From the IMG/VR virus record IMGVR_UViG_2651869694_000013: a stretch of 23,134 nt of DNA; one strand, given 5' to 3'. Numbering within the stretch: position 1 is the first letter of the stretch; the number at the start of each line of letters is the position of its first letter. This document shows positions 2,984-10,152 of the stretch, in pieces. This stretch comes from a virus. Its lineage: Duplodnaviria; Heunggongvirae; Uroviricota; Caudoviricetes. A program made the translations under genes and the position numbers. Under the pieces are notes generated by a model that was not told the origin of the DNA, did not search any database, and saw only the letters and a program-made list of their open reading frames with translations.

Positions 2984-3205
2984 TCACTTCGAACCTCTCT
3001 GTTTACTGATAAGTTCCAGATCCTCCTGGCAACTTGCACAAGTCCGACAACCCTGAACGGCCAAGCGTCTTCGTTCATCTATCGGATCGCCACACTCACA
3101 ACAATGAGTGGCAGATATAGCCTGGTGGTTCAGGCGGCGCATTTTTATTGCTGTGTTGCGCTGTAATTCTTCAATTTCTGATGCTGAATCAATGATGTCT
3201 GCCAT
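2984..3205 (-). CDS. DksA/TraR-family C4-type zinc-finger protein
   Basis: 73-aa product with C-x2-C...C-x2-C spacing (CCECGDPI...CRTCASCQ), typical of phage TraR-like proteins. Confidence 0.75.
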   Translation of the reverse strand: MADIIDSASEIEELQRNTAIKMRRLNHQAISATHCCECGDPIDERRRLAVQGCRTCASCQEDLELISKQRGSK

Positions 3206-3256: not shown

Positions 3257-3281
3257 TAATAAAAAAGGAGCCTGTAGCTCC
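3257..3281 (-). terminator. Putative rho-independent terminator (minus strand)
   Basis: GGAGC-CTGTA-GCTCC hairpin (3267-3281) followed on the minus strand by a T-run (plus-strand AATAAAAAA 3258-3266). Confidence 0.45.
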
Positions 3282-3303: not shown

Positions 3304-3519
3304 TCACCGTTCCTTAAAAACGCCGTTTAACATGCCGATTGCCAGACTTAAGTGAGTTGGTGTGAATCCCATCAGCGTTACCGTTTCGCGGTGCTTCTTC
3401 AGTACGCTACGGCAAATGTCATCGACGTTTTTATCCGGAAACTGCTGTCTGGCTTTTTTGATTTCAGAATTAGCCTGACGGGCAATACTGCGAAGGGCGT
3501 TATTATGTTCTATTGTCAT
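3304..3519 (-). CDS. Hypothetical small protein (71 aa), coupled downstream of the DpdA-like gene
   Basis: Start taken at the internal Met (MTIEHNNALRSIARQ...) with a GAGG Shine-Dalgarno 6 nt upstream; the longer tracked ORF would overlap the upstream gene. Begins 7 nt after the stop of the 250-aa gene. Confidence 0.5.
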   Translation of the reverse strand: MTIEHNNALRSIARQANSEIKKARQQFPDKNVDDICRSVLKKHRETVTLMGFTPTHLSLAIGMLNGVFKER

Positions 3520-3526
3520 ATTGGCC

Positions 3527-4279
3527 TCACACTTCGAATGCCAGTTGAGGGGTAAAGACGTCCCGTTCAGCGTTGTAATTAAGTGAACTGGCACTGTTGA
3601 ATGATTCAATGCGTTCCACAAGAACTTGCGTACGGGTTTCTTTACTTGCGGGAGCATATGGCGAACCTACCCAGGATTTGTCGATGCCTATATTTCTTGC
3701 GACGTTCGTGCTGTCTGCAGACGAAAGCGGTACATGAGTAAAAATGTCTTTATTTAACATCCGTAACCCATGAATCTTGGTGATTGGGTAGCCGTACTGA
3801 TCTACAACATGACGTATAAGATCGCGTAGTTTAGCCCGACACGCTCTCGGTCGTTTTGCATCGTATTCCCCCATCGAGCCGATGCAGACGCGGGGAAACT
3901 CATGGCACAGACGAATAAATCGCTCATCTGGTTCGTTCATGTGCCACACCGGAGCACCAATAAATTTACCGTGAGGCCATGCCGCAATCAGGGCGTCATT
4001 CTCTTCACTGGTTCCGCCGATAACATCCGGGATAACCGCGAATGAGAAACGAGGGTGATTGCCCCAGCGTTCAACAAATCTGTAATATTCATTCCAGTCT
4101 ACGGCCTTGTTTTTTGTCCAGAATGTGAATGCACCATTATCAAGAGCAAATGATTGGGTGACTTCGGAAGCCAGATCAATCTGAGCTGGATTAGCAAAAC
4201 TGATGAATGCGTGTCTGCCTTTCCAGGCTTTCAACGCACAGGTATCGGGAGTTATTGGACCACCGTGAAAATGAATCAT
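3527..4279 (-). CDS. Putative Tgt-fold DNA-guanine transglycosylase (DpdA-like); product assignment tentative
   Basis: 250-aa ORF with a GGGAGAG Shine-Dalgarno. By eye it carries motifs resembling tRNA-guanine transglycosylase catalytic regions: SFALDNGAFTF (cf. Tgt LTDSGGFQVF), AVIPDVIGG (cf. FDEC region), HGLRMLNKD...SSADSTNVARNIG (cf. YLMGVGKPED...FDCVMPTRNARNG). No C-terminal zinc subdomain. Recalled from memory, not alignment-verified. Confidence 0.5.
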   Translation of the reverse strand: MIHFHGGPITPDTCALKAWKGRHAFISFANPAQIDLASEVTQSFALDNGAFTFWTKNKAVDWNEYYRFVERWGNHPRFSFAVIPDVIGGTSEENDALIAAWPHGKFIGAPVWHMNEPDERFIRLCHEFPRVCIGSMGEYDAKRPRACRAKLRDLIRHVVDQYGYPITKIHGLRMLNKDIFTHVPLSSADSTNVARNIGIDKSWVGSPYAPASKETRTQVLVERIESFNSASSLNYNAERDVFTPQLAFEV

Positions 4280-4440
4280 ACACTCTCCCGTTTATTATTT
4301 ATCTCCTCAGCCAGCCGCTGGGCTTTCAGCGGATTTCGGATAACAGAAAGGCCGGGAAATACCCAGCCTCGCTTTGTAACGGAGTAGACGAAAGTGATCG
4401 CGCCTACCCGGATATTATCGTGAGGATGCGTCATCGCCAT
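4276..4440 (-). CDS. Hypothetical small protein (54 aa), coupled between exo and the DpdA-like gene
   Basis: Hand translation [54 protein letters not shown]; GGGGAG Shine-Dalgarno 4 nt upstream; its TGA overlaps the ATG of the next gene (ATGA) and its start overlaps the exo 3' end by 10 nt. Confidence 0.5.
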
Positions 4441-5111
4441 TGCTCCCCAAATACAAAACCAATTTCAGCCAGTGCCTCGTCCATTTTTTCGATGAACTCC
4501 GGCACCATCTCGTCAAAACTCGCCATGTACTTTTCATTCCGCTCAATCACGACATAATGCAGGCCTTCACGCTTCATGCGCGGGTCATAGTTGGCAAAGT
4601 ACCAGGCATCTTTTCGCGTCACCCACATGCTGTACTGCACCTGGGCCATGTAAGCCGACTTTATGGCCTCGAAACCACCGAGCCGGAACTTCATGAAATC
4701 CCGGGAGGTAAACGGGCATTTCAGTTCAAGGCCGTTGCCGTCACTGCATAAACCATCGGGAGAGCAGGCGGTGCGCATACTTTCGTCGCGATAGATGATC
4801 GGAGATTCAATAACATTTACGCCGGAAGTGAACTCAAACAGGGTTCTGGCGTCGTTCTCGTACTGTTTTCCCCAGGCCAGCGCTTTAGCGTTAACTTCCG
4901 GAGCCACACCGGTGCAAACCTCAGCTAGCAGGGTGTGGAAGTAGGACATTTTCATGTCAGGCCACTTCTTTCCTGATCGGGGCTTTGCTATCACGTTGTG
5001 AACTTCTGAAGCGGTGATGACGCCGAGCCGTAATTTGTGCCATGCATCATCCCCCTGTTCGACAGCTCTCACGTCGATCCCGGTACGCTGCAGGATAATG
5101 TCCGGTGTCAT
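4431..5111 (-). CDS. exo: Lambda exonuclease (Red-alpha, 5'-3' dsDNA exonuclease)
   Basis: 226-aa product matches recalled lambda Exo ([65 protein letters not shown]...). Confidence 0.95.
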
Positions 5112-5893
5112 GCTGCCACCTTCTGCTCAGTGGCTTTCTGTTTCAGGAATCCAAGAGCTTTCACTGCTTCGGCCTGTGTCAGTTCTGACGATGCGCGAAT
5201 GTCGCGGCGAAATATCTGGGAACAGAGCGGCAATAAGTCGTCATCCCATGTTTTGTCCAGGGCAATCAGCAGAGTGTTAATCTCCTGCATGGTTTCATCG
5301 TTAACCGGAGTGATGTCGCGTTCCGGCTGACGTTCTGCAGTGTATGCGGTATTTTCGACAATGCGCTCGGCTTCATCCTTGTCATAGATACCCGCAAATC
5401 CGAAGGCGAGACGGGCACACTGAATCATGGCTTTATGCCGTAACATCCGTTTAGGATGCGACTGCCACGGCCCCGTGATTTCTCTGCCTTCACGGGTTTT
5501 GAATGGTTCGCGGCGGCATTCATCCATCCACTCGGTAACGCAGATCGGATGATTACGGTCCTTGCGGTAAATCCGGCATGTGCAGGATTCATTGTCCTGC
5601 TCAAAGTCCATGCCATCAAACTGCTGGTTTTCATTGATGATGCGGGACCAGCCATCAACGCCCACCACCGGAACGATGCCGTTCTGCTTGTCAGGGAAGG
5701 CGTAAATTTCTTTCGTCCACGGATTAAGGCCGTACTGGTTGGCGACGATCAACAATGCGATGAACTGCGCATCGCTGGCATCACCTTTAAATGCCGTCTG
5801 GCGAAGAGTGGTGATCAGTTCCTGTGGGTCGACAGAATCCATGCCGACACGTTCAGCCAGCTTCCCAGCCAGCGTTGCGAGTGCTGTACTCAT
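5108..5893 (-). CDS. bet: Recombination protein Bet (Red-beta, ssDNA annealing protein)
   Basis: 261-aa product matches recalled lambda Bet ([68 protein letters not shown]...); overlaps the exo start by 4 nt. Confidence 0.95.
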
Positions 5894-5898
5894 CCGTT

Positions 5899-6195
5899 TT
5901 ATACCTCTGAATCAATATCAACCTGATGGTGAGCAATGGTTTCAACCATGTACCGGATGTGTTCTGCCATGCGCTCCTGAAACTCAACATCGTCATCAAA
6001 TGCACGGGTAATGGCTTTTTTGCTGGCCCCGTGGCGTTGCAAATGATCGATGCATAGCGATTCAAACAGGTGCTGGGGCAGGCCTTTTTCCATGTCGTCT
6101 GCCAGTTCTGCCTCTTTCTCTTCACGGGCGATCTGCTGGTAGTGACGCGCCCAGCTCTGAGCCTCAAGACGATCCTGAATGTAATAAGCGTTCAT
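5899..6195 (-). CDS. gam: Gam, RecBCD inhibitor (98-aa GamS-length form)
   Basis: [60 protein letters not shown]... matches recalled lambda Gam from its internal start. The upstream ATG at 6316 is 121 nt away and therefore out of frame. Confidence 0.9.
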
Positions 6196-7170: not shown

Positions 7171-7371
7171 TCAGGCAGCTTTGTTGTTCTGTTTACCAAG
7201 TTCTCTGGCAATCATTGCCGTCGTTCGTATTGCCCATTTATCGACATATTTCCCATCTTCCATTACAGGAAACATTTCTTCAGGCTTAACCATGCATTCA
7301 GATTGCAGCTTGCATCCATTGCATCGCTTGAATTGTCCACACCATTGATTTTTATCAATAGTCGTAGTCAT
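7171..7371 (-). CDS. ral: Ral, restriction alleviation protein (modulates type I R-M)
   Basis: 66-aa product MTTTIDKNQWCGQFKRCNGCKLQSECMVKPEEMFPVMEDGKYVDKWAIRTTAMIARELGKQNNKAA matches recalled lambda Ral. Confidence 0.9.
   Translation of the reverse strand: MTTTIDKNQWCGQFKRCNGCKLQSECMVKPEEMFPVMEDGKYVDKWAIRTTAMIARELGKQNNKAA

Positions 7372-8796: not shown

Positions 8797-10152
<1,356 letters not shown>

Follow-up and report, generated by a model that had tools for sequence, protein, structure and literature searches.

A stand-alone DpdA homologue in the early-left operon of a lambdoid prophage, a probable host-fed DNA-guanine transglycosylase

The modification of DNA with 7-deazaguanines is an established counter-defence of virulent phages, and where the level of modification is high, these bases shield the phage from many restriction enzymes (Hutinet et al. 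2019, PMC6884629). In phage CAjan, whose DpdA (gp35) belongs with the phage 9g enzyme to DpdA1 of the Queuovirinae, dpdA lies beside folE, queD, queC, queE and a preQ0 transporter gene, and about 32% of G is modified. Deletion of the CAjan dpdA abolishes dPreQ0 (Hutinet et al. 2019, PMC6884629). The same survey describes a third group of 76 phages that encode DpdA only, with no preQ0/G+ synthesis genes and possibly using host preQ0, and notes a "singleton" cluster that is limited to gamma-proteobacterial hosts (Hutinet et al. 2019, PMC6884629). The DpdA-only phages were the largest group in that survey and are the least understood. Phages HK106, BTP1, SPN3UB, SEN1 and 7-11 are DpdA-only in it, and its Supplementary Data 1 lists SfI with a DpdA entry only, YP_009147480 (Hutinet et al. 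2019, PMC6884629). Here we analyse a gene of this type, encoding 250 amino acids on the minus strand at 3527-4279 of a 23,134-nucleotide stretch of caudoviricete DNA (IMG/VR record IMGVR_UViG_2651869694_000013), the whole of which is called the window below.

Two singleton-DpdA phages, both virulent, are the only ones with chemical analysis: Salmonella phage 7-11 and Pantoea phage MED16 (2021; DpdA gp38, same cluster). Both encode DpdA only and carry dADG in virion DNA. In 7-11 DNA, dADG amounts to 50 per 10^6 nucleotides, around 0.02% of G (Hutinet et al. 2019, PMC6884629); in MED16 it reaches around 0.13% of G, and the restriction enzymes tested were not noticeably affected. The dpdA of 9g expressed alone in E. 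coli gave dPreQ0 in 0.03-0.3% of plasmid G (Hutinet et al. 2019, PMC6884629), evidence that a DpdA can draw on the pools of its host. A literature search on DpdA with lambdoid or temperate phages found no experimental study of that subgroup.

The 250-aa protein is, close to certainly, a member of the DpdA family, in which we assign it to the gamma-proteobacterial singleton clade. It is 100% identical over 250 amino acids to gp34 of SfI (YP_009147480.1), named "queuine tRNA-ribosyltransferase" in RefSeq. A first-pass annotation, made by reading the sequence, had proposed a DpdA-like enzyme with the fold of tRNA-guanine transglycosylase (Tgt); this is correct but already known, as the protein was listed as DpdA in 2019 and is annotated in RefSeq. 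The identification adds nothing to the published and annotated record, and the interest lies in what singleton DpdAs do. The protein matches PHROG 887 ("queuine tRNA-ribosyltransferase") with an E-value of 4e-99; this family also takes the DpdA of CAjan (8e-96) and of 7-11 (7e-74), and not E. coli Tgt. A profile of 62 full-length representatives with 31-51% identity to the query (alignment A1) aligned with CAjan DpdA in hhalign at a probability of 98.8% and an E-value of 5e-17 over 173 columns, and when the family profile was compared with the single sequence of E. coli Tgt, hhalign detected nothing (probability 0.35). According to BLASTP, the protein shares 36% identity with 7-11 DpdA (E 1e-36) and 39% with MED16 DpdA (E 3e-47).

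The profile search that the first-pass annotation had proposed was negative for Pfam TGT, yet the PHROG 887 and hhalign matches to DpdA were strong. No match was found for the protein by hmmscan in Pfam, NCBIfam or PADLOC, and the threshold of Pfam TGT (PF01702) was reached neither by it nor by any of its 62 relatives. Since the validated CAjan DpdA and the 7-11 DpdA are likewise without a Pfam match, and all 62 relatives miss too, we do not count this against the DpdA assignment. Searches of PDB sequences with phmmer and profile hmmsearch returned noise only (HipT, GCN4 coiled coils). PGAP labels the protein hypothetical; the PGAP annotation used throughout is that of an E. coli prophage 99.97% identical to the window. 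There are 6182 homologues at E<=1e-3, an exhaustive search yielded 894 clusters at 50% identity, and on these numbers dpdA is a real gene.

The AlphaFold2 model built with A1 (pLDDT 93.6, pTM 0.90) shows strands and helices alternating as in a TIM barrel and has the TGT-type (beta/alpha)8 architecture. Foldseek was not discriminating against the PDB; against viral models it gave 30 matches at E<=1e-3, many named queuine tRNA-ribosyltransferase, including a protein of Vibrio phage nt-1. The residues conserved in A1 form six colinear motifs (Table 1), with D47 and H170 in 62/62 sequences, D85, H113, D189 and S190 in 61/62, A50 in 60/62 and G134 in 59/62. The distances between successive motifs are 38, 28, 21, 36 and 19 residues, versus 42, 27, 21, 34 and 19 in CAjan DpdA. 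Each of the three motifs that had been compared with Tgt by eye occurs in the protein: LDNGAF spans residues 46-51, PDV residues 84-86 and SADSTNVARNIG residues 187-198, where E. coli Tgt reads LTDSGGF, FDEC and FDCVMPTRNARNG. The two catalytic Asp positions, on whose conservation the first-pass annotation had made its proposal depend, align with D63 and D206 of CAjan DpdA. The CAjan partner of D85 varies with the method, being D105 by BLASTP and shifted by three residues by hhalign and MAFFT. In bacterial DpdA, the corresponding functions belong to D95 (acid/base), D130 and H181 (base recognition), G206-G207-M208 (7-substituent) and D256 (nucleophile), and alignment and motif order suggest that the residues of the window protein match this set in order. 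The protein has no cysteine after residue 147 and hence lacks a zinc cluster of the Tgt type, which E. coli Tgt forms with C302, C304 and C307; the first-pass annotation had remarked on this lack as a trait of phage DpdA enzymes, and CAjan DpdA is alike.

Compared with SfI gp34 and the other singleton DpdAs (234-261 aa, same motifs, no zinc cluster, no phage que genes), the protein is no different, and only the lambdoid chassis in which the gene sits is another one; the BTP1 and SPN3UB proteins are 67.6% identical to it. CAjan DpdA shares PHROG 887, the six motifs, their near-identical spacing and the lack of a zinc cluster, but is only about 18-21% identical and, with 306 aa, has a longer C-terminal extension; unlike that enzyme, the window protein would take its base from the host. 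The bacterial DpdA of the S. Montevideo Dpd restriction-modification system (PDB 7UI4) is larger (413 aa). Its structure includes a zinc site and the large insertion Ins8, its assays were run in the presence of the ATPase DpdB, and its other partners are DpdC and the restriction genes. The window protein shows neither the zinc site nor Ins8, the PGAP annotation contains no such partner genes, dpdB included, and PADLOC gave no DpdA match. Tgt and ArcTGT (PF01702) differ in having an N-terminal beta-sheet lid and a zinc subdomain, both missing from the window protein, which is around 125 residues shorter. Finally, Cap10 of type IV CBASS (PDB 9NTN; catalytic pair D248/H226) is 9% identical to the window protein, and acts with a CD-NTase and the QueC-like Cap9, binding the NDG-modified N-terminus of CdnD.

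Genes for making the base were searched in the window by tblastn with the CAjan FolE, QueD, QueC, QueE and YhhQ-like preQ0 transporter, and the best match had an E-value of 0.037 over 15 residues; the PGAP annotation of the near-identical prophage also contains no que genes. The first-pass annotation had likewise seen no queC, queD, queE or folE in the window. Within the window the dpdA gene is thus a singleton, and the late region of this prophage falls beyond it.

Three tightly packed minus-strand open reading frames (ORFs) span 3304-4440 according to the ORF list and the raw sequence, with dpdA in the middle (Table 1). The coupling described in the first-pass annotation was found: the dpdA ATG (4279-4277) overlaps the TGA (4278-4276) of the DUF1317 ORF as ATGA, since the plus strand reads "tcat" at 4276-4279, and a gap of 7 nucleotides separates dpdA from the 71-aa version of the next ORF. 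In the PGAP version the DUF1317 ORF is 52 aa long and starts at ATG 4434. The Red genes exo, bet and gam adjoin the cassette on its upstream side in a lambdoid pL operon, and ORFs, PGAP names and the Pfam match of Ral all bear out the earlier placement of the gene behind exo/bet/gam in an operon with ral. Upstream of gam lie kil, cIII, a gene for a DUF2528 protein, ral, sieB (opposite strand) and N. The window also carries a 434-like immunity and replication region, with the integrase at its left end.

Table 1. Coordinates of dpdA, its conserved motifs and neighbouring features in the window
Feature	Coordinates	Strand	Description and basis	CAjan DpdA	E. coli Tgt
dpdA, 250 aa	3527-4279	minus	stand-alone ("singleton") phage DpdA, minimal TGT-fold TIM barrel without zinc subdomain		
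LDNGAF, residues 46-51	D47 codon 4139-4141		motif	D63	D89
PD, residues 84-85	D85 codon 4025-4027		motif	D105	D143
PVWH, residues 110-113	H113 codon 3941-3943		motif	H132	Q187 (inferred)
GSMG, residues 134-137	G134 codon 3878-3880		motif	G153	G213-G214-L
HGL, residues 170-172	H170 codon 3770-3772		motif	H187	Y242-L-M
SADS, residues 187-190	D189 codon 3713-3715		motif	D206	D264
DUF1317 (lambda orf60a-type) ORF, 54 aa from ATG 4440	4276-4440	minus	Pfam PF07026, E 2.5e-33; PHROG 1998		
71-aa ORF	3304-3519	minus	function unknown (PHROG 303); PHROG 303 alignment, PGAP 216-nt gene		
Terminator-like GC hairpin and T run	3267-3281	minus	consensus scan		
exo	4431-5111	minus	lambda Red gene, pL operon; ORF list, PGAP name		
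bet	5108-5893	minus	lambda Red gene, pL operon; ORF list, PGAP name		
gam	5899-6195	minus	lambda Red gene, pL operon; ORF list, PGAP name		
ral	7171-7371	minus	restriction-alleviation gene; Pfam Ral, E 1.6e-48		

The neighbourhood of dpdA was surveyed by clustering all ORFs in 84 related loci with DpdA identities of 64-100%. No real neighbour family reaches a majority of these loci: the DUF1317 ORF occurs in 24, the 71-aa ORF in 22 and a TraR/DksA zinc-finger gene in 28. The two coupled small ORFs were considered as functional partners of DpdA and rejected, being present in only 24/84 and 22/84 loci, and no hidden partner emerged from the clustering, neither a DpdC-like hydratase nor a specificity factor. 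In the P22-like phage BTP1, dpdA has quite different neighbours, although its site is again the accessory stretch that separates the recombination genes from xis/int. Among complete E. coli genomes, the full cassette is found in 95 of 5426 (about 1.8%), and the flanking small ORFs match in 3601 of the 5426. The sporadic neighbours across loci indicate that DpdA moves as a single-gene cassette and that the coupled ORFs are ordinary exo-xis genes. The enzyme is thus found as a mobile cassette in the early-left operon of a lambdoid prophage, and also in the Shigella serotype-converting phage SfI.

Two relatives of around 40% identity are fused to other domains, each in a single contig, and both retain all active-site residues. 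One (P0244, L090:2840-3847), on a 24-kb phage-like metagenomic contig, joins an N-terminal QueD/PTPS domain to DpdA. The other (P0231, L091:6001-7266), from a P2-like prophage in which the replication gene gpA follows it closely, joins an N-terminal Dam-type N6-adenine DNA methyltransferase to DpdA; it is without roughly the first 38 residues of the barrel and is weighed lightly. Through these fusions the DpdA clade is connected both with the preQ0 pathway and with DNA modification. A third one, between a DpdA-like sequence and a baseplate hub GPD (P0267), was set aside as a probable gene-calling or assembly artefact.

From these data we consider it probable that the protein is a host-fed DNA-guanine transglycosylase of the singleton DpdA clade. 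If the mechanism is like that of bacterial DpdA and Tgt, D189 would be the nucleophile, forming a covalent deoxyribosyl intermediate through attack on C1' of the target deoxyguanosine, with D47 as the general acid/base; the 7-substituent would be seated in the G134-S-M-G loop, and D189 would have H170 as its partner. Guanine would be swapped for preQ0, or for its precursor ADG, supplied by the host Q pathway (FolE, QueD, QueE, QueC). Early expression from pL after infection or induction is expected because dpdA is translationally chained through bet, exo and orf60a, and the gene would be silent in the lysogen. The predicted outcome is a post-replicative, low-level modification of progeny DNA, about 0.01-0.3% of G and probably restricted to motifs. 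We infer that modification of the DNA of the window phage is likely to be real; protection against some nuclease-based defence is plausible, and the chance of an anti-restriction benefit is no better than even. If the enzyme is active, the DNA exported by induced prophages would bear a modification fuelled by the host, with possible consequences for horizontal transfer between strains, and as lambda genetics are tractable, the cassette is a convenient system for probing the role of singleton DpdAs.

The alternative that survives best accepts that DNA is modified but assigns the mark a purpose other than classical anti-restriction: evading another defence, marking lytic-cycle DNA, affecting packaging or expression, or being near-neutral cargo. 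We regard this as somewhat unlikely, though it has to be taken seriously. None of the restriction enzymes tested was noticeably affected by the dADG of MED16, and the authors of that study name other roles that it may have; ral in the same operon already counters type I restriction-modification; other exo-xis genes affect the lysis-lysogeny decision; and the presence of dpdA is sporadic when the E. coli counts of its cassette and of the flanking ORFs are compared. However, 7-deazaguanines are protective in highly modified phages (Hutinet et al. 2019, PMC6884629), a sparse motif-specific mark could still block one particular enzyme, and the active site is under strong purifying conservation in 62 diverse clusters, which speaks against a neutral gene.

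A narrower conjecture, which we hold to be improbable, makes the singleton clade a specialised installer of ADG (or CDG), taken from the host as a QueC-pathway intermediate and placed at a few motifs. Expression from pL only would then leave a sparse "lytic-cycle" mark on virion DNA and not on prophage DNA; the function of this mark would not be to block classical restriction enzymes. Direct installation of ADG would explain why 7-11 and MED16 contain dADG and not dPreQ0 without a DpdC-like hydratase.

It is also unlikely that the protein is an active TGT-fold base-exchange enzyme whose substrate is something other than phage DNA, either a tRNA of host or phage origin or, as in Cap10, a deazaguanine linked to protein, with the trace dADG of its relatives as a side reaction. 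By sequence the protein is far nearer to the DNA-modifying DpdAs, with which it shares its PHROG and the hhalign match given above, than to Tgt. The zinc subdomain that binds tRNA is absent, and CAjan DpdA, also without the zinc cluster, nevertheless modifies its DNA heavily. Neither the window nor the near-identical prophage has an annotated gene for a CD-NTase or Cap9, PADLOC gave no match, and in one relative a DNA adenine methyltransferase is part of the protein. We consider it very improbable that the gene has decayed and persists in the mosaic exo-xis region as a remnant without catalytic activity, as its PGAP label of hypothetical might suggest: the frame is intact and full-length, the catalytic and pocket residues vary little or not at all among relatives of 31-51% identity, the model is confident and compact, and translational coupling within an expressed operon is tight.

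The start of the ORF downstream of dpdA differs between sources. The mechanical ORF list gives 117 aa (3304-3657) with a 131-nucleotide overlap with dpdA, and the SfI GenBank and RefSeq records likewise contain a 354-nucleotide ORF with this overlap. The PHROG 303 alignment starts only at residue 45 of the 117-aa version, PGAP calls a 216-nucleotide gene (71 aa) in the near-identical prophage, and ATG 3519 is preceded by a GAGG Shine-Dalgarno sequence that overlaps the dpdA stop; on these grounds ATG 3519 is taken as the real start, and the deposited SfI start is probably too far upstream. Starting at ATG 3519 leaves 7 nucleotides (3520-3526) after the dpdA stop. The 71-aa product has no Pfam match, and a search of PDB sequences gave spurious ankyrin-repeat matches only. 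Directly behind the 71-aa ORF, between the cassette and the TraR/DksA zinc-finger ORF (2984-3205), the hairpin listed in Table 1 reads GGAGCTACAGGCTCC followed by TTTTTTATTA; it may be a pL-operon terminator that is read through under N antitermination.

Two further ORFs of the window lie outside the cassette. The first, of 200 aa, is on the plus strand at 2171-2773 and so runs against the pL operon; the GC content of this patch is low, at 0.37-0.39 compared with 0.47-0.53 nearby. Its product contains hydrophobic stretches and is without a Pfam match, PHROG 1416 (unknown function) covers its C-terminal 88 residues only, and by appearance it looks like a moron-type insertion. The second, of 158 aa, is on the minus strand at 8797-9273 between N and the immunity region; it has no Pfam match and belongs to PHROG 2651 (unknown function). 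Its N-terminal part resembles a signal peptide, and the PGAP version in the near-identical prophage is 103 aa long.
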